NCBI GenBank assembly: GCA_963823665.1 | Contig: CAWGMQ010000007.1 | Location: forward strand, 928,001 to 992,000 | Source: an uncultured Planctomycetota bacterium | Lineage (GTDB): Bacteria; Planctomycetota; Planctomycetia; Isosphaerales; Isosphaeraceae | Direction of reading: 5' to 3' | DNA: 64,000 nucleotides | Shown here: positions 23,341-43,100 of the stretch, piece after piece | Layout of the letters: every line of letters begins with the position of its first letter | How positions within the stretch are numbered: the first letter of the stretch is position 1 | The notes under the pieces: model-generated | What the model saw: the letters and a program-made list of their open reading frames with translations, nothing else | The model's database searches: none | Told to the model about the DNA's origin: nothing | Translations under genes and position numbers: made by a program

Positions 23341-26200
23341 ATGCGCATGGCGTCATTTACATCATTGGTTGTCCTGGTGGCGTCGTCGTCGGATCTTCCG
23401 CGATTCGCGGTCAGGCATGCGGCGCTGGAGCAAGCTCGGTCGTCACGGCTTTCGGCTCGCTGGATCGGGCAGGACGGGCATGATTACGTGGGCCCGCATG
23501 AGAGGCTTGCGCCCAGCGATATTCAGGATATTCATATTGCGATTGCGGGACTGGATCCGCGCCGCGAGGTGGTCTTTGTCGAGGTCAGGTCAACCAACGG
23601 GAACTTCTGGCGATTTGCGGAGAAGCCGGAAGGGTATCGGGCCGAATTCAAACGTGCCAAGGGAGCACGGACGGGGGATGTGTTTTTCGAGCCGGCGGCG
23701 GTCGAGACGGGGCGGCCGTTTCATGTGCTGGTTCGCTACGAAGATGGATCGACAGCCGAGGCCGATCTGCCCGGCGGCAAGGCGGATGACAAGCTGCCAG
23801 TGAAGACCGTGGCACTTGCGGCGCGGTGGATCGGCCAGGACCGGCAAGACCGCACCGGAGCGGGGCCGTCGGTGGGCGGCGACGGGTTTCAAGACGTGCG
23901 GATCCATGTCAGCCGGCTTTCGACCAGGTTGACCCTCAAAGGAATCCGGGTTGTGGGGACGAGCGGCGCGACGTGGGAATCGGGGCCGAACCCCAAGCTG
24001 TTGCCGAGCGCCGAGCTGGTGCGCGACGCGAAGGATCCGTCTCAGGGCGACCTGTACTTCCAGCCGAATCGTGACTTGACGGGCCAACGACTGAAGCTGA
24101 CGGCCCTGTACGACAACGACCAGGTCGACACGACCACTGTGAACGCTGGGCGGTGCGATCCCGCGCTGCGGATGCCGCAAGTGGCGCTGCCGAAGTTTTC
24201 GGAAGTGGCGGCGGACGTCCGATGGCTGGGGCAGGATGGCTTGAGCGCGACCGCGCCGGGCGACGTACACCTGGCCATTTCGGGACTGCCGGGTTCGCAG
24301 GGGATCGCCGCCGCGGTTCTGAGCAACTCGCAACGAGGCGTGTGGATCTACCGCAAGAATGACCGCGCCAATGTGGCTGTCGATCCGTCAGCCGAATCGC
24401 TCACGATCAAGGCGAACGCGCAGAGCAGGTCACTCGACGTGTTCTTCCCTCCATATCGGGATGAGAGCAAGGGCACGATGACGCTGCGGTTGATTGCAGC
24501 CGACGGCCGGAGCTCGATCCTCCGGTTCGCCGGAGGCGTCTGCGACCCGGCCAAGCGCTCGGGCGAGCCGGTGCGGGAGAGCGCGACCGCGAAGCCGGGC
24601 GACGACCTTCAAAGCGTGGCCGATCGATTCGGGTCGATGACGCTTGGGGCCGGGACTTACCGGCTGAATAGGCCGCTCGTGCTCAACCGTCCGGTGGCGA
24701 TCGTCGCGGAGAACGGGGCTACGCTCGTCTTCTCACAGCCGGCGAGTGATGCGCCCTGGTCAGCGGCGATCAAGATTCATTGCGGCAACACGACGCTTTC
24801 CGGCTTCAGCGTGCGCATCGAAGGGCCGATCCGATGGAGGAACGACGTCGAGTATGGGCCGGCCTTGATCGGGATGACGGACAATTTCGATCAGGGTCAC
24901 GACGATCCCAAGTTCAACGTCGTCTTCAAGCGTTTAGACCTGGAGATTCCGGCGAGCAGCAAACTCCGCGGGCTGGGTGGACTCGCTCGGGCTCATGAGG
25001 CTGAAACGGGCCAGGAGCGGCGTGATCGAGGGGAACATCCTGCGCGGGGGCATGATCGAGTTTTTCGACGGGCCGTGGCGGATTGTCAGCAATGAATTTC
25101 GGGGCACGCCGCCCGGCAGCTATTCTCACGCGGTTTTCGCCGGTCACGGTGTTCACGACGTGCTCGTGCAGAATAACGTCACCAAGAGCGTGGGGCCCAG
25201 CGGCAAGACGTGGCGGTTTCTGGTCTTGACCTGGTTCGGCGCCGGAGACGTGGTCGAGGGAAACACGATCGAGCAGGTGGGGGCCCGGGATGACGACACG
25301 ATTCCGTGGAGCAATGAGCCGGAGATCATGCTGACGGAAGCCTATCACCTGAAGTACGAGGGTAAGGTCATGGCCCTGTCGACCGACGGACGAGTGCTGC
25401 GAACCGGGCAGCCGCAGGGTGACTGGGTGCGGACGGGTGATGTCGTCTCGCTGTTGAACGGGCCGGCGGCGGGCCAGTGGCGCCAGGTTGTACAGGCGCT
25501 CGAATCGACGGCCTATCTGGTTGATGCCGCGATTCCCGCGGGAACCGAGGTTGTGTCGATTTCGACGGCGTTTGTGGGTGAGACGTTTCAGAAGAACCGG
25601 GTGGATGTGCGGGGCGGCCGGCGGTCGTCGCCTCTTGTTCTCGCGGGCAACAACTTCGGAACGAGGGTTATCAAGAATCACTTCCTGGGAGGGGAGTTTG
25701 CGGTGCGGCTGACTGCCTTTCCCACGGAGTCGCCGGTGATCTGGGGCTGGTCGCACGCGCCGTTCCTGGGGGGTGTGATCGAAGGGAACGTTCTGGAGGA
25801 TGCGGAGAAGGGGGGGCTCGTCGGCGTCGAGCACGACGGGCGTTTCATCAAGACGAACCAGGGGCGGGTTTACATGACGGCCGCGCTCAATGACAACGAA
25901 GTGCGGTGGAGCGAGGGCTTTTTGAGCAGAGCAGCCGGAACGGGCTCGAGAGACACGCCGCCGGGGCTCACGCTGGGGTACGCGCCGTCGCACGACGCCG
26001 GTGAGCTTGTGGTGACGGTGCGCGGCAACCGGCTGGTGGCACCGGCGGGGCGGGAATCGGCGAAGGCGCTGGTGATTCCCGCGGCTGATTACAACGGGGG
26101 GCGGGTGCAAAACCGCAGGCTGCCGCTTTCGGATAACGGTGCGGGTGCGCGCCCGACCTCGCGCGCGGCAAGCACGAAGGCCGGCGCTCGTTCGCGATAA
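23341..26200 (+). CDS. Secreted protein with three N-terminal repeats and a parallel beta-helix (pectin-lyase-like) domain (frameshift near 24965)
   Basis: RWIGQD/RWLGQD repeated three times; LGAGTYRL, VIEGN, VQNN, VEGN beta-helix turns. Confidence 0.7.
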
Positions 26201-26446
26201 ACGACGCGGATCCCTTATTTCTTCGGCCTGGTTCAAAGGAAGAAAGGGTAGACTCACTCGGGACGGTTCGCAGCACGTGGGGTGGGTACAACCCATCCAG
26301 CCCAGAAGCGCATCGTCCCAACAACCCGCCCAGCCCGCTCCCCCCATCACGCGGCGAGCCGCTTCGTCCAACCCCGCGCCAGAGCGGCACCGGGACTTCT
26401 CTGCCGCCAAAACCACGGATTGGCGTCACATCCTTACCACCATTGG

Positions 26447-26610
26447 GTTTAGGTGTGACGATGGAATAATCGGAACTCCGGGGTTTTTCGCCGTAAATAC
26501 TTGTTCGGCTAACATTTAGGGCGTGACGATCGAATATTCGGAACCGTGCTTTTCTTGGATGTAAAGTCGTGTGGTGACTAATGTTATGGCGTGACGATCG
26601 AGAATTCAAG
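26447..26610 (+). repeat. Degenerate tandem repeat with 68-bp period
   Basis: GTGACGAT(G/C)GA at 26455, 26523 and 26591. Confidence 0.7.
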
Positions 26611-27692
26611 GCTCTGGCTTCTAAACATCGGCACTGAATCCGACTGCGGGTGAGTCCATTTTTCGGGCTCCGTCCAGACAGGATTTCGTTTTGTAGATTT
26701 GTCGCGCGTCCTTACGCCACAAGGCTTACGGGAACGGACGTGCGCACTTTTGACCGCGAGCCAGGGGCCAAACTCGATCCATTCCTCGCTCGCACCATGC
26801 CAGCCTAAACACCTCGCTCCTCCCCAGTCATGCATTCCTGCGCTCCGGCTCTCGAGACACGGTTTCGCATGTTTCATATAAGTAGTAGTAAGTGGAACTA
26901 AATGGGACTATATGGGACTCTAACCCTAAAAAAGTCTCATTTTCCTTGCTGTCTTGATCCCCGTCCGGCGCCTCGCCGGAACGCCATGGAACCGTACGGA
27001 AATCCTGAGAGCCAAAGGGGATAACGCCAAGAGTCCCGCTCATGATCGCCCCGCCCACGAGGAGAAAACTCACCCTCACCGTGGTCCACCCCCCGTCCCA
27101 CGCCCGGTCCGGTCCAAACTCGAGAGCATTTCACAGTAAAAAGTCCGTGATGCGGCCTGAAAGGCGGGATCGAATGACGCTCATCGAGAATGACGTTGAG
27201 AAGAAGACAACTCGCGATGTGGTGATGGATCGGATGAAATGAAATTCGAGCCCCGGACCAACCCGCATGGTTGCCTGCCCAGGGTTACGTTAAGGAACAG
27301 GCCGGAAATAACTTCCCGATTTCGGTTCTCAATCCTACCACGACGGAAAGCCCTCGTTCCGACGCTCTGCGTCGGAACGGTCTTTGTGCCGCTCCGCGGC
27401 GCACTTCACGTAAATCGACGGAATTTGGTTCCGGCCCGTTCCTAAGCGTCGCGACGCCCGGTCATCCGCGACGAGTGTATCCGTCCCCCGGCGTGGGGAC
27501 GTGCAGGCGCAGCCGGCGGTGGGGGGCGTGCATGCGAACGACAGCAAAGCCCGGACAGTGACGCCCTACCGGCCACCCGCACCGATCACGGAACTTCCCC
27601 TACTAATATTATGTGCGGGTTTTCGAAATTGGCCATTTCTCAATCGCATTTTCGATTTGCGTGAAAAGCGCAAGTTCAATAGCGATGGGTAA

Positions 27693-28703
27693 TTAACTGC
27701 TGAGAAAACTCGTTCTGAGATGCCCGTTCAATACAGTTTGAAAACTGCCAGGGTGCAACCCACCATCCGACCCCAAACCCGCCCGCTCCCCGCCAACGGC
27801 CCCCGCCGGATCCGCGTGGGTTGCGCTCCGCTCCACCCACCCTACGGAAACCACATTCTTCGCCAGCGCCTCCTCCGCCCGCCGCAGAATCGCCTCCATT
27901 CGATGCGCATACGTGTGCTTCGCAATAGCCTCGGCTAGCCCCGCGGCCGCAATCCGCTCGCGCAGCGATTGGCGCCCGAGATAGAACGCCAGCTTATCGA
28001 GCAAGTCATCGCCATCGCGGTAAGTTGCCAGGTGCACGCCATCGCGGAAAAGGTCGGCGAGGCCGTTGTCGCTCAGGTCGTTGGTGAGTAGCATCGACCC
28101 GCAGGCAACCGCCTCGAAGACGCGCATATTCACGTCATTGCGGATACTCCGATTGAACGCGATGCGGGCAGCCGAATAGGTGCGTGCCATGTCGTCGAAA
28201 TAGCATTGGCCGATGAATGAGTTCCGATATCGCCGCTGAATCAGCCCCAGCAATTCGCCTCGTGGCCCCGGAAAAACGTTTCCGACGAACGCAACGTCGT
28301 ACTGCTTGGCCACATCGTCGTGCTTGCGATGAATACCGGGGTCACAAGCCAGCGGCAGCCACGAAGCCGAGCGAACACCGATGCCGCGGAGTAGATCGAC
28401 CCCGTCGCGCTGCGCGGCAAACACCAGGTCGAACCGCGGCGCCTTCTCGCGGCAACGGTCGAAATCAAGGTGCGTATCAATCGCCCAGAAAGCGCTCGGC
28501 CGGCAATCCGGCGGCAGGTGATAGCGCAGTCCGTCATCGATATTGAGGTATAGATCGAAGCCGGTGCGCGGCATACGGTCGAGCTCGAAAGGCTGAAAGT
28601 GCTGAACTTCAACGAGCCGCTCGAGAGCGCGGTGGCAATAAACCCCAGCCGTCTCCGGCCGCAGGGTGGTGTCAAAGACGACGGCGACGCGTTGGATTTC
28701 CAT
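27693..28703 (-). CDS. CgeB-like / GT-B glycosyltransferase (C-terminus possibly truncated)
   Basis: WLPLACDP, YDVAFVG, NDVNMRVFEA, HTYAHR. Confidence 0.8.
   Translation of the reverse strand: MEIQRVAVVFDTTLRPETAGVYCHRALERLVEVQHFQPFELDRMPRTGFDLYLNIDDGLRYHLPPDCRPSAFWAIDTHLDFDRCREKAPRFDLVFAAQRDGVDLLRGIGVRSASWLPLACDPGIHRKHDDVAKQYDVAFVGNVFPGPRGELLGLIQRRYRNSFIGQCYFDDMARTYSAARIAFNRSIRNDVNMRVFEAVACGSMLLTNDLSDNGLADLFRDGVHLATYRDGDDLLDKLAFYLGRQSLRERIAAAGLAEAIAKHTYAHRMEAILRRAEEALAKNVVSVGWVERSATHADPAGAVGGERAGLGSDGGLHPGSFQTVLNGHLRTSFLSS
27815..27846 (-). repeat. GTAG-type REP element inside the 3' end of the glycosyltransferase ORF
   Basis: Minus strand GTAGGGTGGGTGGAGCGGAGCGCAACCCAC. Confidence 0.65.
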
Positions 28704-28969
28704 GGCTCGTTGTCCGCAGAGTGGGGTGATCAAGGGAGAAGACGTCGGTCCGCAAGTGGACGGTCAGCAATTCAGCTCATCTTCGGGTGAAGGCGAAATT
28801 GGAGAATTCGGAGTTTGGTCCGCAGATGACGCAGAGGAACGCAGATAAATCAGATGGAAGACAAACGGAACGGGCCCGCGCCGGAACTGCCGTTGGGTGC
28901 GGGCGGCCGGACTTTATTGGGTCCCTTTTGGTGGGTGAAGCGCCGATGGTGTCTGCGCCCGTGCCGCGA

Positions 28970-29280
28970 GGGAAGCCAGGGAAGCCAGACATCCACTCTG
29001 GCGAGTGGGTTCCGGAGAAGCCACGCGGGGAAGCCAGACATCCACTCTCTCGAGGGGAAGCCAGGGAAGCCAGACATCCGCTCTGTCGAGGAGTGGGGAA
29101 GCCAGACATCCACTCTGTCGAGGAGGGGAAGCCAGACATCCACTCTGTCGAGGAGTGGGGAAGCCAGGAAGCCAGACATCCACTCTGTCGAGTGGGTTCC
29201 GGAGAAGCCACGCGGGGAAGCCAGACATCGGGAAGCCAGACATCCACTCTCTCGAGTGGGTTCCGGAGAAGCCACGCGAA
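28970..29280 (+). repeat. Array of 11 head-to-tail, variably truncated copies of a transposon end
   Basis: (G)GGAAGCCA starts at 28970, 28979, 29028, 29055, 29064, 29096, 29126, 29158, 29167, 29215, 29230. Confidence 0.9.
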
Positions 29281-29545
29281 GGTGGCTCGCACCGGTTCGC
29301 GTGCCGCGAATGCTGGGTGCCTCGCGGCCGATGCGACGCACAGCAGATACTATACCACGCGCGGTAAGCAACCGGGTGCGCTCTGGTGCCTCGCCGGCGC
29401 TCGCACGCATCGGTTGCTGGGAACCGTTAGAGATGGACGGCGGTGCTTTGTCGCGCCGGCGAAACGGAACGACGCTTGCCGGCCTTGAATCCAATCGAAT
29501 TCCGCACCTACCGCTACCACCAAGGCTCACAAGCGAGCCGCTTAC

Positions 29546-30270
29546 TTACAGAAACGCGACCTGCGCGGCCGCCTTGCCCTGAAACCAGCACCGTGAACAA
29601 CGCGGTGCGGCACGCACAAGCGAGCTCGCTCGACCTGCCGCTTGCTTGAACATGCGACCGAAGTCGCGCACCGTGTCCACCCAATTCGTTCGATCCACTC
29701 CCAGCCGGTCCAGGATGGGAGCCAGGTCTTCCGGGATTGCCCCACGCTTGTCCCGCCCCCCCGGCCCGTCCAATCGAGCAGCATGACGTACTTTCTGGTC
29801 TCGATCGGCAGAAATCCTTGATCCGACGCCGGCGCAGGGAGCGGCCGTTTTGACGCCGCCTGGAGCGGCACGGCCGAGACCGTGGCTGAGGAGCCAGCGT
29901 CGGCCATCAGCATCGCCAGGTCGTTGTCGTCGGGCTCCGCCGGCTCGCCCGTAACATCGTCGCGTTGCGGAAAGAGCTTGTGCCAGCGCAGAGCGACTTC
30001 GGTGTCGGACCACAGTTCGACGCGGTCGGGTCGATTGCGGAGCACAAGATGCAGATGGTTGCTCATAATGGCGTAACTACACACATCAATTCCGAAGAGT
30101 CCGGCGAGGTGGCGTAGGCGATCGATAATCCACGCCTTACGGTGAGAGTAATCACGACCGGAGTAGGAGTCGGTGCCGCGAAGGAAGGCTCTGCGGACGC
30201 ACCGAGCAATGCAGTCATACACACCGACGAACGCCTCTTGCACGATGTGGCGGCGTGCAGAGGCAGGCAC
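29546..30270 (-). pseudogene. RAYT-like Y1 transposase with internal deletion
   Basis: CIARCVRRAFL and MSNHLHLVL present; segment with YIDLNP seen in the copy at 38364-39580 is missing. Confidence 0.85.
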
Positions 30271-30335
30271 GTAAGGCTCCATTACCATGCAGGTGCAGCA
30301 CGTTAGCGAGAGTATTCATAAGGTCAGTAATGGAC

Positions 30336-30363
30336 AAAATAGCAACAGTGGCGCGGGTGTCAA
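30336..30363 (-). promoter_or_regulatory. Putative sigma70 promoter of transposase 1
   Basis: TTGACA-16 nt-TATTTT, conserved upstream of both transposases while the spacer diverges. Confidence 0.65.
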
Positions 30364-30513
30364 GAGTCTTGAGAAAAAATTTGACAGACAGCGAAGAGGG
30401 TTCGCTCGGAGCGACCAAGACTTGCGACGACCGCCGCCACGGCTGCGCGGGGACGACCCTGGCGCGACATCTGGATGAGGGATGCCATCTTCACATCAGA
30501 TAGGTGGGTGTCT

Positions 30514-32524
30514 TTGCGTCAGGAAAAGCTCGAGAAAGGAGGAAGTGCCTCGAAACACAGAAACCTTTCATCGCGACCCTGCGGGTTAACGAATCCCGCC
30601 CGGCAGAGCCTGGCCGGCAGCCGGAAGCAAGTCTTGCGTGGGGAGGGGTGACCCTCACTGCGAAGCGTAGACAGCGAGTCTCCATGCCATGCTATCGAGC
30701 CCCGAAATACTCATCGTGGGAGCCTCCGTTGTAGACACAAGCGGGGGCCGTGTCGACACGCCGCAATGGCCTGGCGTGTTCGGTCCTGCCGGGGTCCAAG
30801 AACATGGCGCAGGGACGCGAGGGTTGCTCGGGAACCTGAGAGCCCCATCCGTCTCCACTGACATTTCCGGCTCGGGATCCGGAATACCAACTCCCCGGCC
30901 CACGACCTCGCGTCGGGTCGCTGGGAGCGAACAGGACGCAAGGGTGGTATCGCCACACGAAGGCAACGAAGTGCGGCGAAAGGGGCGGATGGGAGTCGGA
31001 GCGTCTCGTAGTACCGTTGAAGCCGGGGAACCACTCCGAGGGACCCGGTGGAGGGAAGGAGACGCCATGTCACACAACCGTTGGAGGGAAACATGGCGGG
31101 TGCATCGGAACCCGTGGACGTGTCCACGAAACAACAACGGATAGCGGAACTCGCTCGGCGAAGCCCGGAGATGGGATTCACATCCCTGGGGCACTTCATC
31201 GACCTCGATTGGCTGCTCACAGCTTACTACCGGACCCGCCAAGACGGGGCGGTGGGCGTAGACGGACAAGATGGCGAGGCCTACGCAGCGAACCTGGTCC
31301 CGAACCTACGGTCGCTGCTGGAACGAGCCAAGTCCGGTACGTACCACGCACCGCCTGTGCGGCGAGTGCATATCCCCAAGGCAGGCTCAGCGACCGAAAC
31401 CCGGCCACTGGGAATCCCGACCTTCGAGGATAAAGTGCTCCAGCGTGCTGTCGTGATGGTTCTGGAGGCGATATACGAGCAGGACTTCAAGAACTGCTCG
31501 CATGGCTTCCGGCCCGAGCGATCGGCACACACTGCGTTAGAGAGCCTGTGGCAACAGACGATGAACATGAAGGGCGGATGGGTAGTGGATGTGGACATTC
31601 GTAAGTTCTTTGACACGATTGACCACGGCCATCTACGCGACTTCCTCAAGCGTCGGGTGCGAGACGGAGTGCTGCTCCGGCTCATCGGCAAATGGCTCAA
31701 TGCGGGCGTCTTCGAGAACGGGTGCGTTACGCACCCCGAAATGGGGTCGCCACAAGGGGGTGTGATCAGCCCGATCCTTTCGAATATCTTCCTGCACTAC
31801 GTGCTGGACGAGTGGTTCGAGCGGGAGGTTCAGCCTCGGATGATGGGCAGATCGTTCTTGATCCGCTATGCGGACGACTTCGTCATGGTCTTCTCATGCG
31901 AGTCCGACGCACGGCGTGTGATGAATGTGTTGCCCAAACGCTTTGAGAAGTACGGCTTGACCATCCACCCGGACAAGACGCGGCTGGTGCCGTTCGAGCG
32001 GCCATCGGACCGTCCCAAACCGGAAGGCAGACCCACACGAACTCCACCAGGGACTTTCGACCTGCTGGCGTTCACCCATTACTGGGGTCGCTCCCGGCAG
32101 GGTCGCTGGGTGGTGAAGCGCAAGACGTCCAAAAGTCGATTTCGCCGCAGCCTGCGAACGTTGGCGGATTGGTGTCGCAAAAATCGCCATCAACCGCTCA
32201 AGGTGCAGCACCGGATACTAGGTCAGAAACTGCTAGGCCACTATGCCTACTACGGAATCACCGGCAACTCCAAAATGTTGTCACGGTTTCGCAGTGGTGC
32301 CACCTGGCTCTGGCAGCACTGGCTGTCGCGCCGCGGCGCGGCCGTCGGATGACGTGGGATCGGTTCGCTCGTTTCCTGAAGCATAAACCGCTTCCGGCAG
32401 CGATCGCGATCCACTCGGTATGCCGTCTCGTAGCGAACAAGTGACATGACGAGCCGGGTGCCTGAATTGGGCAAGCCCGGATCTGTGGGAGCCTTGGGGG
32501 AGCGATCCCCCAAGGCGACCCGGC
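30514..32524 (+). mobile_element. Group II intron
   Basis: 5' TTGCG; domain V GAGCCGGGTGCCTGAATTGGGCAAGCCCGGATC at 32451; domain VI hairpin ending CGACCCGGC; EBS1-like AGACAC at 30733 complementary to the 5' exon GTGTCT. Confidence 0.92.
31093..32444 (+). CDS. ltrA: Group II intron reverse transcriptase/maturase without endonuclease domain (frameshift near 32340)
   Basis: GVDG, RPLGIP, GFRP, DIRKFFD, GSPQGG, RYADD, GHYAYY maturase X motif. Confidence 0.93.
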
Positions 32525-32809
32525 GCCTTCCCTTGTTAACATCAATCTTTGCGGTTTCCCTCATCACTTAACATGCAAGAAGTATGCCCCCAAAAGATCG
32601 TCGATCTCACGCACCTGTTGCAAGACTTCGTTTGCAGTTGGGAGTCGACCTAGAAGTTGAAATCGAATACGAAATAGGGTCCAAAGATCATTTATCTTAT
32701 CATGAACGTTCCCCGCAACGGCAACTAGATTGCCTGGGTTGTTGTATTCCCGCGAGGAAGACCTGTTCGCTGCCCTCGATAAAGCAATCGCGCAGAGGTC
32801 GAAAGAGGT

Positions 32810-32916
32810 GGGAGCCACGGACAGTTGATACGCCAGATCGTCCTGAGAAAGCCCCGCTCGATCGCTCGGCTCATGCCGATCGCCGGCTTAATCCGTTGAT
32901 GGGTGTCTGGAATCCC
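32810..32916. mobile_element. Short non-coding unit ending in the transposon end motif
   Basis: GGGTGTCTGGAATCCC at 32901-32916; weaker left motif GGGAGCCACGGACAG at 32810. Confidence 0.55.
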
Positions 32917-32939
32917 TTGAAGCTCACGACTGTGCCGGA

Positions 32940-33744
32940 TTATCGCTTGCGCTTGCGAGCGCGAAGACGCCCCGCATCACGAAGAAGTTGCGCTGTCCAA
33001 CGTGCCGCGGCCGGCGGTAGGGGCGGTTGCGGAGCTTGAGTGTAATCGATGTCGTCGTAGCCGCCATTCTGATAGCACTGCTCAATTAGAGCTTGCAAGT
33101 CGAGCGGAACGTCGGAGTCAGTCGCCCGCAATGGCACTTTGATCGTGGGCAGCCGATCGGACAGGGCGATGGGGTGGTACTCTGCCTGCAAGCGCCGCCC
33201 GCCCCGGCGCACAACCACCCGATACTCGGTAAGCACATTCGGCTCAATCGCATCCATCGGCAGTGCGACGACCCAGTCGCCCCCACGCAACAAGTCGATC
33301 TCCACGAGATTCACACCCGCCAGACGGAGCTCCTGCTGCTTCCGTAAGTACTGTTCTTGGCCGTCGCCGGGCCTTTTGTTTGAAGGACTCAAGACCTCCA
33401 AGACGGTCACGAGTCGCGAATCGGACGAGACTTCTCGTATCTCGAGGAACCGCTGAGTCTCGGGCTCATCGGCCAGCTCGATCACGAGCGGCTGGGCAAC
33501 GGCTATGCTGCCGGCGCGTCCGGCCGCTCGCCTCGATGTGCGCTCCGTTTCGATGACGCGCACGTCGGGGAAGAGCGAGCGGGGGCGGTCAAACAGCGAA
33601 ACAACCACTCGCTCTTCAACCCTGGCGCAAATACCTGGGCAGCAGCGTTTGCAACCGGTCGCGCGCATATGTTACCAAACTGGTGTGAACATCACCCCAG
33701 TATCGCTCCAGGTAAGGGTCCATACCGGGAAAGGGACTGGGCAC
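32940..33744 (-). CDS. DUF4058-like (PD-(D/E)xK-related) protein, frameshifted near 33640
   Basis: MPSPFPGMDPYLE start, EVLSPSNK, LVEIDLLRGG, PLDLQAL. Confidence 0.8.
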
Positions 33745-34084
33745 TTGAATCCTCACGGAAACCGCTGATACGAAACGAGCGAACACACGATTTGACCCCT
33801 CGTGGGCGAATTGTGCCCAGTCGGAAGTGACGGGAGCGTCGCCGCAAACCGATCACACCAGAGCATTCGAACCATTGTTGAGTACCTCTGGCAAGCATCC
33901 GGCCGAGCACCGCTCGTACCAACCAGATTCTAAGCGAGTTTAGCACGTATTGCCAACGCTGGTGCCCAGATCGTTGGCAAGAAGATGTGACGGACTGCGA
34001 GCTCCGAGTTCCTCACCCGAATCCGCCGACCAAACCGACGACAAGCTCGAAGCACGATGCGTGTCCTGGCCCTTCTGGACCGGG

Positions 34085-34303
34085 TTAGAACTTCGGGGCC
34101 GCCTCGACCCGGACCAGGACATCCAGGCTCACCGCCTGGCACACCCGGGTCCCGTCCCAGCGCACGTAGACCATGCCCGCGCGAGGCCCGTCTGGCCGGG
34201 CAAGCCCGACCACGGTCCCGGGCCGTTCGGCGGTGCGGCCGTGGCGCGAGCTGGTCGCGAATGCGGCCAGGTCCAGGGTTACGCGGTCGCCTCTGTCGAA
34301 CAT
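34085..34303 (-). CDS. Small hypothetical protein, possibly SH3/KOW-like barrel
   Basis: MFDRGDRV...GTVVG...VYVRWD pattern. Confidence 0.55.
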   Translation of the reverse strand: MFDRGDRVTLDLAAFATSSRHGRTAERPGTVVGLARPDGPRAGMVYVRWDGTRVCQAVSLDVLVRVEAAPKF

Positions 34304-34329
34304 GGGCGGGGTCCTGGGCTGCGTTAGCG

Positions 34330-34587
34330 TTTGGGAGAGCGGCATCTGCTTCGCAGTGATGTCCCTGAAGACGAAAGGTGTTAGGATCCATCTCAAGCGC
34401 GTGCATTCTCATGCCTACCTCAGGTTTATCGGCTATAAATGGCATTTCCGTGAGTGCCGAAAGAGCCAAGAGGTGATTTCCATAATCTGGGTGGCCAGCT
34501 TGAATGTGCCGAAGTTCATGGCCGAGCAGAAAGATCATGCAATCCCATGCGAGATACTCGGTCACGAGTTGACGAACGGCGTCAGTA
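34330..34587 (-). pseudogene. Internal fragment of an HExxH metallopeptidase gene
   Basis: FLLGHELRH and later EAD; no start codon; abuts the end motif at 34588. Confidence 0.5.
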
Positions 34588-34738
34588 GGGATGTCAGACA
34601 CCCACCGTTTGCCGAGTGTCGGGCACTGGCCTTCTGCGTGTTCGAAATGACCAGAAGCCGTGGTTTTGCACCGAACGAGCGAGCCGCGAATGAGTGGATG
34701 CGGAGGACCGTGACAAAAGGATGGGTGACTGGATTCCC
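34588..34738. mobile_element. 151-bp miniature element with inverted end motifs
   Basis: GGGATGTCAGACACCC ... GGGTGACTGGATTCCC (12/16 complementary); left end continues ACCGTT like the end at 39720-39741. Confidence 0.7.
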
Positions 34739-35024
34739 TTGCTCGCAAGCCTCGTCAAACTTGCCCCCCATCGCATCAAGAACCGCGAGATCATTCTGAA
34801 CGAGCGCCCGAAGCCGGGGGTTCGTGCCCCTCGCAAAACCGCGCCAGCCGCAGATACGCTGCCCGAGCGTCATCATATCGCCCCTCGCGCGCCAGCTCGC
34901 AAGCCTTCCAATACCCAGCCGGCAGGCCATTCCTGGCACGGCCCGCCTCGCCATCGCCCTTGGCCACCCGCGGCTCCTTCGCCTTCTTCTCACCCCGCCC
35001 AGATGCCTTCCCGCGCTTAGACAT
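34739..35024 (-). pseudogene. 5' fragment of a TPR-like protein gene, cut at the miniature element
   Basis: LAREGRYDDARAAY and QNDLAVLDAMGGKFDEA TPR-like helices; coding character stops at 34738. Confidence 0.5.
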
Positions 35025-35216
35025 CGCCGCCCCCGACCAACTCTGGATTCTAGGTTGCCGAGCTCAAGCTGCGATTCGGTCCGACTCCGTGGCGCCTTCG
35101 TGATCCCCTTCGGCATCGCCCGGGTCAGCGACGATTCAGACCCAGCTCGGCCCGCGCTCGACCCGCTCCTCTCCTTCGCCCGAATTCATTCGTGAAGATT
35201 CGTGCCATTCGTGGTC

Positions 35217-35470
35217 AACCAGCATTTCATACCCGCACATTCCCGACGCCCTCGCACCTTCCTCGCCCGTGTCATCTCATCTGCGTCCCATCGGCGTCAT
35301 CTGCGGACAAATCTCCGGTCCCTCGTCGTTCCCCTATCTCCGTTCAACGCGATCCGTGATTAACCAGCATTTCATACCCGCACCTTTCCGACGCCCGCGC
35401 ATCTTCCTCGTCTTTGTGATCTTATCTGCGTCCCATCGGCGTCATCTGCGGATAAATCTCCGGTTCGCCC
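35217..35470. repeat. Two diverged copies of a roughly 145-bp intergenic unit
   Basis: AACCAGCATTTCATACCCGCAC and ATCTGCGTCCCATCGGCGTCATCTGCGGA each occur twice. Confidence 0.75.
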
Positions 35471-35519
35471 ATCGCTTTCCCATCCCCGTCTAACAAATGA
35501 TCCGCCATCGTCCGTTCGC

Positions 35520-35903
35520 TCAAGTCGGTCCATTCGGTGGAGCAGGCCAGTGCGCCAGCGCATCCTTGAGCGCCCCGATCGCCAGTGCCGGGCAATGCAG
35601 CTTATCCGGCGGCACGCCATCCAGCGCCTCGATCAGATTCTCGACCGTCAAGTCCCGGCATTCCGCGATCGATTTCCCATTGATCATCTCCGTCAGCATT
35701 GATCCACTCGCGGTCGTCGGCCCGCAACCCACTGTGTGGTACTTCGCAGCCGCGATTCGCTCGTCCTCAATCCTCAAATAAACGATCATGAACGCCCCGC
35801 GGCCTGGCGCACCAGCATGGCCGGTCAGGTCGGGGTTCTCGATCGCCCCGCCGTTGCGAGGGGCCATCACGTGCTCAGTGAGCCTGTCGGAGTACTTCCC
35901 CAT
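35520..35903 (-). CDS. IscU/NifU N-terminal-like protein lacking the first Cys ligand
   Basis: YS..L.EH..PRN.G, GCGPTTASGSML, K.HC; GAPGRG in place of GxPxCG. Confidence 0.8.
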   Translation of the reverse strand: MGKYSDRLTEHVMAPRNGGAIENPDLTGHAGAPGRGAFMIVYLRIEDERIAAAKYHTVGCGPTTASGSMLTEMINGKSIAECRDLTVENLIEALDGVPPDKLHCPALAIGALKDALAHWPAPPNGPT

Positions 35904-36022
35904 GTTCGGCGCTCACGCACCGGGACCCTTGAACCCAAGCCTCGTCGAATTATGTTGAAAAGACGTCTGACCGCCTGAACGGCCATTGCGCCGCCGGGCC
36001 GCCGGGGCCGACAGAGCCGTCC

Positions 36023-36364
36023 TCAGCCCTCTCGCTGCTCGCGCCATCGGTACACATGCACCGGCCGGCCGTCTTTGGACGCCGCCCGCAGTTCGCCGGT
36101 CTGGGGATCGGGCTCGACCACAAGATAGCGCACGGGGTTGTCGCGGAACAGCTCGGTCGTACCGTCCGGCTGGGTGACGACGTACAGGCCCCTGGTGCGG
36201 TCGTGGTCGAAAGAAAAATGCCTGGGAGCTTCTCGAACCTCGTAGGTGCATGTGACCACTCCGGGCGTCGCCTCGTAGCAGACAGGATCCGGCCATCTTG
36301 CCGGCGCGTCGGCCCCGCCTGGATCCATGGGCCGACGGCCTTCGGCGTCAAATTCGGAATTCAT
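36023..36364 (-). CDS. Hypothetical protein
   Basis: GGAGG upstream; globular-looking product. Confidence 0.55.
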   Translation of the reverse strand: MNSEFDAEGRRPMDPGGADAPARWPDPVCYEATPGVVTCTYEVREAPRHFSFDHDRTRGLYVVTQPDGTTELFRDNPVRYLVVEPDPQTGELRAASKDGRPVHVYRWREQREG

Positions 36365-36589
36365 TGCGGGCACCTCCAGAGAAACGGGTCAACGGAACGA
36401 GTGTGAAAAAGAAACGTCGCGCTAACACTCTCTTCCTGGCTGAGGGGAACAGGGACGCGGGAGCGAAACAAAGACGCGATCATTTCGTCTATGAATCTGA
36501 CTGCCGGCTGGAATCCGCGTAATTAGATTGTCGCCTCGGTCGCCGATTCGCTCGCTTTCCGCGGGCGGCCTTCAGGAGAAACGGTCTGC

Positions 36590-36742
36590 TCCAGGGCGAG
36601 ATGTTGCCGCAGGTGAGCCTCATCATCACACGCTCGAACGCCTCAAAGTCGGACTCCTTGTGGAACATACGCATCTCGCCGACGGATCGGTTCAGGACGT
36701 CATAGACAGACCCCCAGGTGCTACTCTCGCCGTTCTTGGCAT
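36590..36742 (-). pseudogene. N-terminal remnant of a second RAYT/Y1 transposase family
   Basis: MPRTARVAPGG then VYDVLNRSVG...F...DFEAF (frameshifted), truncated before the HUH motif. Confidence 0.7.
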
Positions 36743-36807
36743 GACAACATCCGCCTGCAGAACTGACGGGTTCCGTCAATACTAATCGAGTCGCTGTTTC
36801 CGTCCGA

Positions 36808-37595
36808 TTAAAGGAGATTGTTGCCCACGTAGGCCCTTATCTGGATTCCAGGTATCGCATCAAGAAGGGCCCTTACTCCGGCTTCAGTCACACGCGTCTC
36901 CGTTACGTCTAGGGTCCGCAGGTTGCTGAGAACCCCTCAAATGGAGCAGACCTGCATCGCTGACCTCAGTGTCGCTGAGGTCTAGCTCGCGGAGATTAGT
37001 CAGTCCCTTCAGGTGCACCAATCCCGAATCCTTGATTCTGGCCGAGAACCAGAACGAGCTGTTGCAGTTGGGTCAATCCACGCAGATGAATCAAGCCCGC
37101 GTCAGTGACGTTGCTCCCATAAAGCAGAATCCGTTGCAGACTCGTCAGCCTATTCAGATGAACGAGGCCGGCGTCCGAAACCGACGACGCCCTGATTTTC
37201 AACTCGACTAATCCGGTCAGTCGACCGACAGGGATCATATCGTTGTCGGTAAACGTGAGCGAATGAGTTAGCCATCCCATCTGCTCAACGGCCACGGCGG
37301 TGTCGAAGTAGTCGACTCCAAGTGCATTGATTAGCCATCGTGGAGCCCGAGACTCGCTGATCCAACTGCGTGAGGCAGTCCCCTTTTTGTACTGCCATCC
37401 GTACCAGACACTGCCATCGGCTCTCCGGATCGCATCTACCGCGTCGCGCTGGACTCGGGCACAATGGACCATCCACCCAAACCCGCCCCCCAGTATCAGA
37501 ACGAGCAGAACGAACGCGCCGATGCTGATCTGGAAGTAACTTCGCCAGTAACCAGTCGCCTGCTGCGCGCGCATCATACCGCCTTCACTGACCAC
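36808..37595 (-). CDS. Membrane-anchored leucine-rich repeat protein (frameshifted)
   Basis: N-terminal TM; VSDAGLVHL, VTDAGLIHL, DSGLVHLKGL repeats. Confidence 0.8.
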
Positions 37596-38363
37596 TAAAT
37601 CACAGTTTCGGGGACGCTCTGCTTACTTGGACGGCCGTCGGCTCGGTCCGCGTTTGTGCCGTTTGACGGTTGTGTTCAGTATTCTTCGGGCCAGGCCAGA
37701 AAGATTACTTGGTCGTGCACTCTGCCCGTTTGTTGGTGACCACGCATCAGTTCCACTTCTACCTCCGGAATGACGATCGCAACGAAGACAAACCGGTGGG
37801 CGCTAAGTCGAAGAGAGGGACTCAGGGACTCAAGGGACTCAGACACCCACTCACTGGAGTGGGTTCCGGGGAAGGCGGACGCAGGTGAGTGGCACCGATT
37901 CGCGTACCTCGGTTGCTGGGTGACCCGCGGCCCTTCGCGGCCGACGCCGCGCACAGTAGGCAATGTACCACGCTCAGTCAGCGATCGTACGCGCTTGGGT
38001 AGGTTGCCGGCCACTGCACGCGTCGAAGATGCAAAGACACCCACTCACTGGAGTGGGTTCCGGGGAAGGCGGACGCAAGTGAGTGGCACCGCTTCAGGTA
38101 CCGCGATTGCTGGGTGACTCGCGGCCCCTCGCGGCCAACGCCGCGCACAGCAGACGCTGACCACGCTCGGTCAGCGATCGTATGCGCCTTGGTAGGTCGC
38201 CGGCGCTTGCATGTGTCGGTGCTGCGAACCGATCGATATCGACGGCGGTGCTTCTTCGCTTGCCGCGCCGCGCAGGGAACGAGGCTCGCCGACCTCGAAT
38301 TCAATTGAATTCCGGGTCCGTTGCACCGACTGGCGCTCGGGAGAGAGCGAGCGAGCCTCTTAC

Positions 38364-39580
38364 CTACAAAAACGCGAGTTGAGCGGCCGCCTTGCCCTGA
38401 AACCAGCGCCGTGAGCAACGCAGTGCAGCACGTATAAGCGAACTCGCTCGACCTGCCGCTTGCTTGAACATGCGACCGAAGTCGCGCACCGTCTCCACCC
38501 AATTCGTTCGATCCACTCCCAGCCGGTCCAGAATGGGAGCCAGGTCTTCCGCAATTGCCCCGCGCTTGTCCCGCCTGATTTCCCGGCCCGTCGATCGAGC
38601 AGCATGACGTACTTTCTGGTCTCGATCGGCAGAAATCCTTGATTCGACGCCCGCACAGGGAGCGGCCGTTTTGACGCCGCCTGGAGCGGCACGGCCGAAA
38701 ACGTGGCTGAAGAACCAGCAGGTGCCCGACGCCCCGCAGCATCGACATGGTCACCCGCGATCGGTTCGCACGCCTCAACCGTTTCTGAGGATGCAGCCGG
38801 CGAGCCTTCGGCCTGCCTGGTTATGGGAACGACCTCGTTCTCCCGCAACGTCAGTTCGCACAGCCAGGGACCCGCGCGATTGGAAGTTTCAGTTGAGCCT
38901 TCCTCGCGCGATGAACACAATCCACCCGGAGCGCCGACCAGGTCCAGAATGCGGTCAGCCCCCGACGTGAATTGCGATTTCTCCGGCGTAGTGGCGATTC
39001 CCGCCCGAATCGGGTTGAGATCGATATAGACGCTGCACGCCAAAAGCGCCGCCTCATCGAGCAGCGGCTGCGACTTGAAGCGGCCGGCCCAGAATCTCCC
39101 GGGCGAGTCGTCCTCGCGATTGGCCGCTCGGGCGACCCACTCGCACAAGCACCTCATGAACCACGACAGACTCGACAGCCGGCCGCGCTGAGCCGCCAGC
39201 CTCTCAGCATCGCCCATGAGCATCGCAAGGTCTTGGTCGTCGGGCTCCGCCGGCTCGCCGGTGACATCGTCACGTTGCGGACAGAGCTTGCGCCAGCGTA
39301 GTGCGACTTCGGCGTCGGACCAAAGCTCAACACTGTCGGGTCGATTGCGAAGCACCAGATGCAGGTGGTTACTCATAATGGCATAACCGCACACCTCAAC
39401 GCCGAAGAGTCCGGCGAGGTGGCGCAGCCGATCGAGAATCCACGCCTTACGGTGAGAGTAATCACGACCTGAATAGCAGTCGGTACCGCAAAGAAAAGCT
39501 CTTCGAACCCACCGAGCGATGCAGTGATAAACACCGACTTGATCCTCGTGGACGATGTCGCGGCGAGCAGAGGCTGGCAC
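38364..39580 (-). CDS. RAYT-like HUH/Y1 transposase (one frameshift near 38590)
   Basis: YHCIAR.VRRAFLCG, MSNHLHLVL (HUH), GRFWAGRFKS, YIDLNPIRAG; GTG after GGAG. Confidence 0.88.
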
Positions 39581-39644
39581 GTAAGGCTCCATCACCAGGC
39601 AGGTGTAGTACGTCAGGTGCATATCCACACGAACAGTAATGGAC

Positions 39645-39672
39645 AAAATACCAATACTGCGGCGGTTGTCAA
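39645..39672 (-). promoter_or_regulatory. Putative sigma70 promoter of transposase 2
   Basis: TTGACA-16 nt-TATTTT. Confidence 0.65.
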
Positions 39673-39751
39673 GCGTGTTGGGAAAAAAAGTCGACAGCAC
39701 ACACGTTCTACTCGAAGCGAACGGTGGATGTCTGGCTTTCCTTGCGCGCAC

Positions 39752-40054
39752 TCGCACGATGCCGGTGAGCTGGTGGTCACTGCACGCGGCAACCGGCTGG
39801 TGGCACCGGCGGGGTGGGAATCTGCAAACGCGCTGGTGATTCCTGCGGCGGATTACAACGGGGGGCGGGTGCAGAACCGCAAGCTGGCGCTTTCGGATGA
39901 CGGTGCGGACGCGCGGGCGACCTCGCGCACGGCGGGCAAGAAGCCAGGGACTCGCGCGCTGAGTGGCTTGGGCGGTTCGGGGACCGCGGGCGGCTCACCG
40001 CTCGTTGAAGTCGTCAATCACCCGTCGGTTGTTCGGACGTCTCAATCAGCGTAA
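39752..40054 (+). pseudogene. Orphan diverged copy of the 3' end of the beta-helix gene
   Basis: SHDAGELVVTARGNRLVAPAG...ALVIPAADYNGGRVQNR matches 25988-26170. Confidence 0.85.
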
Positions 40055-40145
40055 GCTACGTCTCTTGACCGTATCATCGTCCTGACGCGGTGAACGGGCA
40101 CGTTTCGCCCGACGCTTAACGCTTGCGGACAAACCGAGGATCTGA

Positions 40146-43100
40146 ATGGACCGTCGAGTGGCGGCATCGCGAGCGGAGCGGAGGCGCAGCTTTCGGAGGG
40201 TGCCGTCCTTCGAGCCCCTGGAAATGCGATGGTTGCGCGCGTCGATCGCGGCCTCGGCCGTTCCCGTCATGCCGCTGAGCGCGTCAGCCTGGACCTCGGT
40301 GGGACCGGCGCCGATCCTCGACGGCCAGGTCCCAGGCAACGGGCCGGTGACAGGGCGGATCCGAGCCGTGGTGCCGGACCCGGCCGACCCGAGCACCTTG
40401 TACATCGCGGCGGATGGCGGGGGCGTCTGGAAGTCCGCGGACGGCGGGACGAGCTGGACGCCCCTGACCGATCACGTCGATGACGGCAGCGGCAACCCTG
40501 TGAACCAGGCGATGGGGGCGCTGGCCGTTGCGAGGAGTAGCCTGCCCTCGACCGGGCCCGGCGGCGAGATCCTCTATGCCGGCCTCGAATCGGAAGACAC
40601 CCAGGGCGTCCTGGTCTCCTTCGATAGCGGCGCGAGCTGGACTCTGGAGAACGATGGCGGTGCGTTCGCTGGCTTGGGCGTCGATAAGCTCGTCGTCGAT
40701 CCGACCGATCCGACGGGTGAGACGGTCTACGCGATGATGAACAACCTGGATTTCAACGGGGTCGTCGGTGGCCAGCCGGGCATCTACAAGTCGTCCGACG
40801 GCGGCCGGACGTGGATCGATTCGGGCGCCGGCATCTCGACGGATGACACCTTCACCGACTTCGTCGTCGACCCCTCGAACGGCCTGGTCCTGTACGCGGC
40901 AGTCGGGCCCCCCATGTTCCAGCAGGGCGCGAGCGGGATATACAAGTCCCTCGACGGCGGCGGCACCTGGACCGAGCTGTCCGGCGGGGCCCCGAGCGGC
41001 GACGCGGCCGGGAACATCGCGATGGCGATTTCGCCGTCGGATCCGCAGACGCTCTTCGCCGTGAGCACCGACCCGACGACCGGCGCGTTCCGGGTCGTGC
41101 GGACCGCCGACGGCGGCACGGCCTGGACCGACGCGACCGGCAATGTGAAGTCCGCCGGGCCTCCGTACCTCATCGCCATCGACCCGACGAATCCGAGCGT
41201 CGTCTTCCTTTTCGGCGGGGGCCAATACGCCGGGGAGGCGACATACGACGCCGGTTACGACATGGAGACGACCGACGGCGGGGCGAGCTGGAATGACATC
41301 TCGATCGACCCGGCCGGGAACGGCCCGCACATCGATGACCATGCCTTTGCCTTCGACGCGAGCGGGGACTTGCTCATGGGCAATGACGGCGGCCTCTGGG
41401 AGCTCACCAAGCCGACGAGCCTGACGACCCAGCGCTGGATAGATCTCAACGGCAACCTCGACATCACCGAGTTCTACGGCGTGGCCCTCGACCCGACGGA
41501 CGCCGGCATCGCCTACGCCGGCTCGCAGGATCAGGGCATCGATAAGGTCCAAGCCGGCGTCGGCTGGGTCCAGCTCCAGCAGGGCGATGGCGGCTATGCA
41601 CGCGTCGATCCGTCCCACCCCGGGACCGTCTACATGGAGATCTATGGCATTGATCTCAAGCGCTCGGACGATGGCGGGCAGACCTTCACGGAGATTTCGC
41701 CCGGGTTCGACCTCCAACTGCTGTCCTGGGGCGATGGCTCGGGGGTGCCGACCACGGGCCAGAACCTCGTCATCGCTGGCACCGACAGCGACGGCCTGCT
41801 CCACATCCGGACTTTCGATTCCGCCCGCGTCCGAACCGACACCTACGAGGCACTGGAGGGCGGCACGCTCCATCTTGTGTCGGCCGACGCCTCGGGCAAT
41901 GTCCTGTCGGACGCGGCGGAGTCGAGCCTCTCCGCGGCCGCGACCGAGTCGATCACCGACCTCAAGCAGCAGCTACCCGGCTTGTTGCCCCCGCACGTCC
42001 TCACCCAGGCCGAGGACACGCAGGTCAACTTCGAGGCGACAACAATCACCGGTGAGACCCTCGGCGGCAAGTTCTTTATCCCCTTCGTCCTCAATCCGTC
42101 TGACCCCTCGGAGGTTCTCTACGGGACGGCAACGCTCTACCAGTCGACGGACAGGGGCCAGACGTGGACGAGCATCGGCGACTCCCGGGGCGTCGTTCAA
42201 CCCGTTCGCCGCGCCTATCGACGCGTTGGCCCTGTCGGGCACGGGGAGCGACACCACGATCTATGTCATGGCCGGAAACGACATCTACACCTCGAAGGAC
42301 GACGGGGCCACCTGGCAGGGTCGCGCGGTCCCGGGTTATAACAGCTTCCACTACGGCGACGCCTCGCTGGTGATCGACCCGACCAATCCGATGGTCGCCT
42401 ACGCCGTGAGGTACCAGTCCAATCCGGCCGGCACTGCGCCGATCGAGACCGGACACGTCTTCCGCACGGCCGATGGCGGTGGGACGTGGACAGACATCAC
42501 CGTCGACCTGCCCGATACTGCCGTCAACGCGATCGCCGTGAACGTCGTCGGGGGCACCACGCAGATCTGGGTCGGCACCAATCGGGGAGTCTATGCCTCG
42601 ACTGACCTGGGAGCGAGCTGGTCGACCTTTGGCGACGAGCTCCCCAACGCGACGGTGACGTCGCTCGAATACGTGGCGAGCTCGAACATCCTGCTAGCCG
42701 GCACGTACGGCCGGGGCGCCTGGGAGATCCTCGACCAGGGCGCTCTGCTCGTGCCCCCCGCGCCTCAGCTCGCGGCCGGGAGCGACACGGGCGTGAGTAG
42801 CACCGACGGGCTCACGCGGGACAATGGCTCCTCCTCCGCGCCAGTGACGTTTACCGTCAGCGGGGTCAGCCCGCTCAACGGCTTCGTTCAGCTCTATGAT
42901 GTCACCGATCCCGGAGGTCCCCTGCCGCTGGGCGGGCCGGAGCAGGCCATCGGCGGGATTGCCACGATCACCCTGGGCGGCGGCGGCGACCTCCCCCTGG
43001 CCGACGGCGTCCATCGAATCGCCGCGACGGCCGCGGTCACATCCGGCGGCGCTCCGAGTGCCGTCTCGGGATCGACCGCGGTCACGATCCAGACGAGCGT

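Follow-up and report, generated by a model that had tools for sequence, protein, structure and literature searches.

A cluster of short repeated sites at positions 28970 to 39741 of a 64,000-nt stretch of DNA from a soil planctomycete (the window; GCA_963823665.1, contig CAWGMQ010000007.1) is probably a hot spot of an HUH/Y1 transposon of subclass 2.3, bounded by terminal inverted repeats (TIRs) in the manner of TIRtrons, and of a 151-bp satellite, where nicking at one end, copying and rejoining would build imprecise arrays. A first-pass annotation of the window had proposed an integron-like cassette platform in which DNA is shuffled between the sites; gene orientation, the position of stop codons, breakpoints and the hairpin of the 151-bp unit all argue against that proposal. 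The window is C7:928001-992000 of the source genome, designated G000 (16.46 Mb, 12 contigs, 92% complete), and DNA-dependent counts for G000 are based on stretches totalling about 2 Mb of the 16.5 Mb. G001 is a sister species of the same genus, with a genome that is 84% complete. Genes beside the units and in the DNA between them (the cargo) were called with our own codon model.

The transposon, its satellite and their shared ends

The recurring motif described in the first-pass annotation was recovered; its pattern matches exactly at 10 places in the window, none of them outside 28979-39741. A weight matrix built from 214 ends found 14 sites in the window, 13 of them in the same span. Genome-wide, G000 had 85 exact matches, which were clustered, and the reversed control had 0; among 60 relatives, exact counts were 54 in G001, 93 in G033, 34 in G030 and 0-4 in the remaining 57. 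The conserved unit was 17 nt long, (G)GGA[A/T]NNC-AGACA[C/T]CCA, with a sharp drop in conservation beyond it and a near-random flank. Because the ends were chosen by the motif, conservation figures inside it are circular and those outside it are not. The core RGACA[C/T/G]CCA also flanks the gene in Gammaproteobacteria, Acidobacteria and other groups (249 cores against 21 expected, counted in loci of at least 6 kb among L054-L120, six of which hold no core).

The motif is the TIR of a 1.8-kb HUH/Y1 element and of a gene-less unit of 151 bp. Full elements measure about 1.8 kb between inward-facing TIRs, and both transposase genes of the window lie between such TIRs, as had been annotated, the TIR at 38027-38043 being degenerate. 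The site that had been read as split is interrupted by a group II intron (30514-32524), and excision of the intron restores a full TIR from 30505-30513 and 32525-32532. Two short non-coding units had been described as well. The 151-bp unit is real and repeated; the 107-bp unit held up only in part, as a single good TIR with a degenerate partner, and no copy of it was present among the matches listed.

The motif's owner had been identified as an enzyme related to the transposases associated with repetitive extragenic palindromes (REPs), and this identification was sustained by a fold that matches TnpA-REP and by invariant H76, H78 and Y189. The protein encoded at 38360-39592 gave a weak match, under the cut-off, to the REP-associated tyrosine transposase family NF047646 (E = 6e-8) and no Pfam match, and a sequence search of the PDB with the transposase found no match. 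When the AlphaFold model of an intact copy (pLDDT 79.5, pTM 0.78) was used for a fold search, the best PDB match was TnpA-REP (4ER8, E = 8e-5), followed by the TnpA proteins of IS608 and ISDra2 (IS200/IS605). The modelled structure thus indicates that the transposase has the HUH/Tyr fold. In an alignment of 49 relatives, H76, H78, Y189 and N193 were invariant within the consensus motifs MSNHYH and VYVDLNP.

By the published table of motifs and lengths, we assign the transposase to TnpA-Y1 subclass 2.3. Members of this subclass are described as having an NHYH-type HUH motif, a YVDLNP-type Tyr motif, a length of about 325 aa, a core insertion and a long C-terminal tail (PMC6006769). The enzyme studied here has an NHYH-like HUH motif and a YVDLNP-type Tyr motif; its profile spans 341 positions, and the planctomycete copies are about 409 aa long with a disordered insert. 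No Pfam domain corresponding to the C-terminal helix-turn-helix of subclass 2.1 was found in it. By Quentin et al. 2018 (PMC6006769), subclass 2.3 is described as lacking REP-like flanks, and class 2 overall as lacking evidence of mobility.

Copies of the element argue for mobility. G000 has 32 matches to the transposase gene, mostly at 78-93% identity and many of them broken. Over 1,799 nt, the full copies in loci L019 and L007 agree at 95%, and their similarity ends at the TIR edges; the copies of G001 agree at 97-98%, and those in four loci of a further genome (L043-L046) at 88-93%, in unrelated flanks. Because copies up to 97-98% identical occupy unrelated flanks without target duplication, these comparisons indicate that the element moves. 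G001 also contains a deleted 1.1-kb derivative, for which six ends were listed at 95-99% identity. This multi-copy element was considered as a carrier of cargo and was rejected, since it is a deleted copy of the transposase element.

Of 121 genomes of the family, four contain the 151-bp unit, G000 and G001 at full length and two others as partial copies. In G000 it gave 42 matches; the count of 41 units is a lower bound, because 40 of 98 candidates were scored. With nine transposase elements tested, the unit has only the 17-20-nt TIR in common. No consistent target duplication was found at the 41 full units. The units of G000 are clustered: 20 neighbour pairs lie no more than 25 kb apart, where 2.5 would be expected, and 6 of 60 stretches of 20 kb taken near, mostly outside, the clusters hold a TIR. 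The units are locally co-oriented, in 18 of these 20 neighbour pairs in G000 and in 11 of 11 in G001, the latter from at least 21 units among those listed. Between clusters the direction was the same in five cases and opposite in five, and GC skew, examined for a replication-strand bias behind the co-orientation, gave no usable signal (agreement at 21 of 35 loci and 11 of 19 clusters). Random scatter of the sites had been named as the picture that would count against the cassette platform; the sites are clustered, co-oriented and marked by traces of repeated activity at their ends.

Traces of activity at the ends

Partial copies of the ends start at a fixed point. A head-to-tail partial self-copy of 6-134 nt was found at 76 of 262 ends (29%), compared with 4 for control points, in a test that seeks copies starting at the TIR. 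In an unanchored test, 63 of 69 perfect duplications here had their start 7-9 nt outside the core; in distant relatives, 43 of 54 had it at a distance of 8-12 nt. Each partial copy in the run at 28970-29246 of the window begins at TIR base 1, and the stop points differ. In locus L134, about 4 kb of cargo have been duplicated head-to-tail together with a unit; this duplication begins at TIR base 1 and stops where there is no TIR, and the copy of a gene end at 39745-39954 of the window has the same geometry at 86% identity. Local direct duplications terminated at TIR edges in 11 of 295 cases, against 0.64 expected. As a separate observation, 18 loci of one gammaproteobacterial genome (L073-L115) have extra cores past the 3' end of the gene, with 20-60 nt of differing sequence between them, and these cores stay unchanged in diverging surroundings (median gene identity 82%). 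Their preservation hints at selection on the cores or at repeated re-making of ends.

The motif is commoner than chance at junctions that cut genes, as had been proposed. Homologues that reach the edge without a TIR were found at 63 of 478 edges, and many of these are other partial copies. Two gene fragments of the window had been described as ending at the motif. The claim held for the gene cut at 34738/34739, which continues in TIR-free paralogues; the junction at 34587/34588 also occurs in G001, and no intact homologue of its fragment was found. This second piece (34023-34587) abuts the 151-bp unit at the identical junction in a different G001 locus, where the far flank of the unit differs. 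Where genomes have DNA in common, its breakpoints had been expected at the motif; they were enriched there (7 of 177; null mean 1.2, maximum 5), but 170 of 177 (96%) lay elsewhere. Within genomes, 5 of 252 breakpoints lay at TIRs, compared with a null mean of 1.8 and a null maximum of 6, which is no clear excess.

These data bear on a passive graveyard, in which a family of insertion sequences (ISs) and miniature inverted-repeat transposable elements inserts cleanly at random and survives in dispensable islands, co-orientation comes from strand bias or local hopping, and cargo arrives by other routes. Both breakpoint counts would suit such a graveyard, as would the mixed orientation of cargo, the many broken transposase genes among the 32 matches, and the presence of a second Y1 family, introns and other ISs in the same regions. 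Clean insertion was nevertheless absent from every testable case: none of 24 hand-picked non-trivial edges resumed directly past the far end of the element (2.8-12 kb of DNA), nor did any of nine blocks with homologues on both sides represent a clean insertion. When L014 and L154 were used to look for empty sites, matches to gene families and patchwork DNA drowned any signal. In the window, 5.9 kb stand in place of 1.9 kb, which is a replacement and not an insertion. Repeated activity at resident ends is needed to account for the head-anchored copies and the unit-plus-4-kb duplication, and co-orientation disappears between clusters. We therefore consider a passive graveyard rather unlikely.

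The reading that we favour, one-ended nicking, copying and rejoining, would proceed as follows. The enzyme would bind the 9-nt core and nick one strand about 8 nt outside it. Its tyrosine would stay linked to the 5' end of the element while the 3'-OH of the flank primes displacement synthesis, and the linked end would then be rejoined to whichever 3'-OH is available. Short synthesis would yield partial self-copies, and long synthesis a tandem copy of the unit with neighbouring DNA, while a deletion or a new junction would arise where the end is joined to a strand that is distant or foreign; a fixed first cut combined with a free second point would also explain the absence of target duplications. 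Ends would thus act singly, and cargo ends would be imprecise. The resulting direct repeats would gain or lose DNA through homologous recombination or end-to-end transfer, producing same-direction arrays with mixed and often broken cargo, and the group II intron would parasitise the TIR. The chemistry has precedents. Cleavage by HUH enzymes leaves a 3'-OH and a 5'-phosphotyrosine, a link that is resolved when another 3'-OH comes in (PMC8266576), and a nick-prime-rejoin model has been published in which TnpA-REP amplifies bacterial interspersed mosaic elements (BIMEs) and can take in flanking genes (PMC3333891).

Several points weigh against this reading. The cut site about 8 nt outside the core is inferred from the ends of duplications only, and several of the 11 duplications at TIR edges involve the intron, an IS or the transposon itself, where plain insertion would truncate likewise. 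The lack of clean insertions comes from limited DNA, with the 24 cases hand-chosen out of 63. With 170 of 177 shared-DNA breakpoints away from TIRs, the greater part of the cargo traffic in these regions must be due to something else. Enzyme and motif do not always occur together: G009 has 34 transposase matches without an exact motif, probably with a different TIR variant, and G030 has 34 motifs and one transposase match. Finally, one orientation of the transposase clusters was kept along contigs in 7 of 8 steps, which hints at replication-strand bias.

One-base frame breaks occur in the window at 33668, 32334, 38595, 25095/24977 and 42341/41587. Some of these are probably assembly errors, because short-read contigs differ from the assembly at 32334 and 29757, and two runs have an extra base in the reverse transcriptase of the intron near 32334; the shift near 38595 in the gene of element 2 may be another such error. 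Such breaks, and the added base, could be taken to mean that long-read assembly artefacts underlie the partial copies and the patchwork. Like partial copies are, however, present in relatives from several phyla and assemblies, and they start at a fixed base. The junction at 39745 is crossed without difference by one 387-nt contig (39467-39853) of short-read run X1, which may be the source sample, and a contig of X2 joins a related intron to the TIR of a unit. An artefact is thus very improbable. Runs X1-X3, in which 0.28, 0.06 and 0.05 of the words were present, revealed no strain variants of the locus.

Cargo and comparison with known systems

The cargo between units is accessory and comprises toxin-antitoxin, restriction-modification and other defence matches together with ordinary enzymes. 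A scan of 72 of 87 called proteins identified four PIN proteins, ParD/ParE, Xre/MbcA, Phd and nucleotidyltransferases, and a second scan of 26 proteins identified restriction-modification, PD-T4-10 and PDC-S31. Sixteen segments of 0.3-1.9 kb are common to G000 and G001 at 89-97% identity, compared with 76-86% for the conserved genes flanking the window. Beside a 151-bp unit in L154 (7800-11100) lie modules of 0.4-0.9 kb that are common to three other genera at 85-95%, and no detectable TIR was found at the boundaries of these modules. A plasmid search returned 13 records, every one below 60% identity and mostly from very large replicons.

On an integron-like reading, the 151-bp unit would be the equivalent of attC, and the Y1 enzyme would excise and insert defined cassettes between units. 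The clustering and co-orientation of the units, the richness of the cargo in toxin-antitoxin and defence genes, and the high identity of the sixteen shared segments would fit such a platform, and the window unit alone folds well into a long hairpin (z -3.3). The earlier statement that no integron integrase is visible was also upheld, as none exceeded the family cut-off in G000 or G001; the best match to TIGR02249 in G000 scored 113 bits against a cut-off of 265, and G001 had none. The genes nearest the units, however, run in the same direction in 50 cases and in the opposite direction in 69, and 7 of 119 cases have a stop codon no farther than 50 nt from the edge of the unit. Spacers between units range from less than 1 kb to more than 10 kb. 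Cargo ends are variable and often cut genes, and among 113 inter-genome and 157 intra-genome segments none was shared cargo bounded by TIRs at both ends in both genomes, nor was there a cassette with the same two boundaries in different arrays. A conserved long hairpin is absent: at -6.7 kcal/mol the consensus fold of 36 units is weak, and it shows almost no covariation (double changes at 2 of 14 pairs). Taken together, these results make defined cassette exchange improbable. As for attC sites, a simple detector lacking a working positive control gave no hit in the window.

Three further candidates were set aside. An attC-like stretch in L154 was not upheld on inspection. A toxin-antitoxin pair between TIRs in L016 was rejected as a fixed cassette, its right-hand ends differing between G000 and G001. 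Mutual exclusion of IntI and a high-copy transposase was dropped because G033 has both, its IntI having an internal stop.

A looser form of exchange is conceivable and is put forward tentatively. The 151-bp unit might be kept as a joining site at which the HUH enzyme ligates a fixed TIR end to arbitrary incoming strands, permitting capture and exchange of toxin-antitoxin, defence and accessory DNA in same-direction arrays without an integrase. If so, it would be a sloppy, HUH-based functional analogue of integrons, with one end precise and the other free.

Integrons are built from IntI, attI and attC. The arrays described here resemble them in their repeated short sites of the same orientation, their accessory and toxin-antitoxin cargo, and the group II introns at those sites; they differ in having no IntI, mixed gene orientation, imprecise cargo ends and no conserved folded site. 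IS91-type enzymes are of the Y2 type and act on distinct ori and ter ends. The one-ended rolling-circle transposition of IS91 and ISCR (cited in PMC3333891, PMC7923331) resembles the present system in its HUH chemistry, one fixed end and variable capture of adjacent DNA, whereas here both ends are alike and both have partial copies.

Among Y1 enzymes, the closest comparison is with subclass 2.3 itself (PMC6006769), with which the transposase agrees in its HUH and Tyr motifs, core insertion, C-terminal tail and several diverged copies per genome. The present element differs from the published description in its conserved TIRs, its near-identical copies in unrelated flanks and its gene-less satellite. 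TIRtrons likewise carry a Y1 gene (the TIRYT) between terminal inverted repeats that are not REPs, and their TIRs are dispersed as monomers, dimers and clusters (PMC3733652). Their consensus is GGGGWSAS and not GGGAWNNC-AGACAYCCA, and a mechanism, co-oriented arrays and end duplications are not among the features given for TIRtrons in the accessible part of that source. The 26 TIRtron examples listed in PMC6006769 fall in subclasses 2.1, 2.2 and 2.5, with none in 2.3. A literature search that took in few subscription papers, and not ISfinder, found no report on TIRs, satellites, end duplications or arrays of subclass 2.3; the supplements of PMC6006769 and PMC3733652 could bear on this point.

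REPtrons, with their REPINs and BIMEs, have a related fold, non-autonomous inverted doublets, tandem amplification with flanks and 5'-phosphotyrosine chemistry (PMC3333891, PMC8266576, PMC3116915, PMC5581495). The present system has no GTAG-footed palindrome and no conserved hairpin. REPIN doublets are described in the same sources as random in extragenic space, whereas the 151-bp units cluster in islands, and the REPtron transposase is single-copy and non-mobile, whereas the gene described here is multi-copy and mobile. Elements of the IS200/IS605 type, with a short TnpA, subterminal hairpins, no TIRs and a fixed tetra- or pentanucleotide target, differ from it, since it has TIRs and a near-random flank. 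Arrays of IS26 are likewise made up of copies in direct orientation that are separated by unique DNA, and they lack target duplication at the targeted step; they are made by a DDE transposase on full IS copies (PMC4196232), and not by an HUH enzyme with a 151-bp gene-less unit. The resemblance to IS26 arrays covers direct repeats, namely the unit pairs and the L134 duplication, and not unit-to-unit targeting. By analogy, our best reading is that the system works like a TIRtron with REPIN-like satellites and IS26-like arrays, nearer to IS26 and ISCR than to integrons.

The locus and its genome supply a 17-nt substrate, a predicted cut position, intact copies of the enzyme and natural products on hand, in the form of short and long head-anchored duplications and gene-cutting junctions, which makes the question directly testable. 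DNA joining could profit from an HUH enzyme that reads a short word without folding, cuts one strand at a set distance from it and joins to arbitrary 3' ends. Should the arrays take in foreign genes, large soil genomes would be turning over accessory genes by a route so far unrecognised.

The group II intron, the island and its flanks

The TIR core serves as the 5' exon in all 20 copies of the group II intron that were examined. G000 has six long copies at 99-100% identity and at least 14 shorter ones, and the six short copies that were mapped are 733 nt long and lack an open reading frame (ORF). The short form is more numerous than the full form and has the same target, which implies that it is mobilised in trans; bacterial introns without an ORF are described as rare (PMC4424553). 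Other genomes contain 29 related introns in which exon-binding site 1 (EBS1) mostly co-varies with the exon, and about five of these have a core like that of the window. In G003 and G068, a related intron lies inside the TIR of a subclass-2.1-like Y1 gene. Several exons of this lineage (L248-L276, L293, L272) are TIRs of subclass-2.1-like Y1 elements, and the lineage may specialise on the ends of Y1 elements. A second intron family, with a further reverse transcriptase nested inside, was observed at or beside TIRs of the same arrays (L005:7071-10230, L011:8729-13158).

All copies of RmInt2 of Sinorhizobium meliloti lie in the inverted repeats of ISRm17 (PMC4615759). As in RmInt2, the intron homes into inverted repeats of an element at one position, with predicted pairing between EBS1 and intron-binding site 1. 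It differs in that its target is the TIR of a Y1 element and a satellite, in its numerous 733-nt ORF-less copies, and in relatives whose EBS1 matches other Y1 TIRs. Because introns that home into IS inverted repeats are already known from RmInt2, the present intron is, by comparison, best seen as a new case of a known habit.

The features of the window are collected in Table 1. In G001, G033, G030 and G021, the gene ending near 26190 is joined to the region starting near 44161, and the sequence 26191-44160 is missing at this site. As to which is the original, the 3' end of this flanking gene or its duplicate at the outer TIR edge, the diagnostic sites were split 10 against 9. As had been noted, the DUF4058 stop codon (32940) lies close to the motif, 23 nt outside the TIR edge at 32916, and all recognisable cargo of the window is on the minus strand. 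This strand bias is partly inherited, because the genes at 34739-36431 are what is left of a single multi-copy cluster that was cut. Intact versions of the cluster, which encodes a glycosyltransferase, a tetratricopeptide-repeat (TPR) protein and IscU, occupy four further loci of G000 (L159-L162) and five of G001; in the window copy, where 1.9 kb are replaced, the right break falls exactly at the TIR edge.

Table 1 Features of the TIR cluster and its surroundings (positions in the window)
Feature	Position	Strand	Details
3' end of conserved flanking gene	25981..26190	+	duplicate at 39745-39954, 86% identity over 210 nt
Island holding the TIR cluster	26191..44160	.	about 18 kb; flanks adjoin each other in four relatives
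Run of head-anchored partial copies of element 3'-side end	28970..29246	+	eight matrix hits, 28979-29230
Transposase element 1, internally deleted	29230..32532	-	homology to full 1.8-kb copies in L007 and L019; 5'-side TIR split by intron
Transposase gene of element 1, deleted	29542..30288	-	HUH motif kept, catalytic Tyr region gone; matches residues 1-129 and C-terminal part only
Group II intron with reverse transcriptase	30514..32524	+	between TIR positions 8 and 9; Rfam group-II-D1D4-6, 138 bits; TIGR04416 over cut-off
Predicted EBS1 (AGACAC)	30733..30738	+	complementary to last six 5'-exon bases; only exact match in first 560 nt; hairpin loop
Lone TIR (107-bp unit of first-pass annotation)	32900..32916	-	28.9 bits; degenerate partner near 32810 below matrix threshold
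DUF4058 gene	32940..33743	-	PF13267, E 6e-53 (Pfam); frame break near 33668; full-length homologues in G033 and G030
565-nt cargo piece: small gene and cut gene with HExxH motif	34023..34587	-	87% identity to G001 L129:1384-1917
151-bp gene-less unit, two inward-facing TIRs	34588..34738	+	at least 41 copies in G000
Remnant of multi-copy glycosyltransferase/TPR/IscU gene cluster	34739..36431	-	cut exactly at TIR edge; IscU at 35520-35903
Second Y1 transposase family (subclass 2.1-like), deleted copy, multi-copy	36442..36805	-	full NHWH-motif gene in L163; many partial copies
Leucine-rich-repeat-like gene piece	36996..37595	-	ORF sequence; family match sub-threshold only
194-nt head-anchored partial copy of element 2 3'-side end	37833..38026	+	87% identical to 38035-38218
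Transposase element 2	38027..39741	-	degenerate 3'-side TIR; 5'-side TIR 39725-39741; 83% identical to full copies over 1.67 kb
Transposase gene of element 2	38360..39592	-	ATG at 39592; one-base shift near 38595 relative to intact copies
Duplicate of flanking gene 3' end	39745..39954	+	starts at outer edge of TIR

Other repeated sequences occupy the same regions. The glycosyltransferase/TPR/IscU cluster has at least five copies each in G000 and G001 (window 27693-28733 and 34739-36431; L159-L162, L146, L183-L186), and the presence of an IscU-like gene within a repeated accessory module is unexplained. The second Y1 family (36442-36805; L163) has ends of its own. At 27287-27449 of the window lies a 160-bp inverted-repeat element of a different family, with G001 copies at 85-94%. 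A 140-nt direct repeat at 35204-35489, the core of which is inverted at 28809-28835, belongs to a repeat family that travels with the multi-copy cluster.

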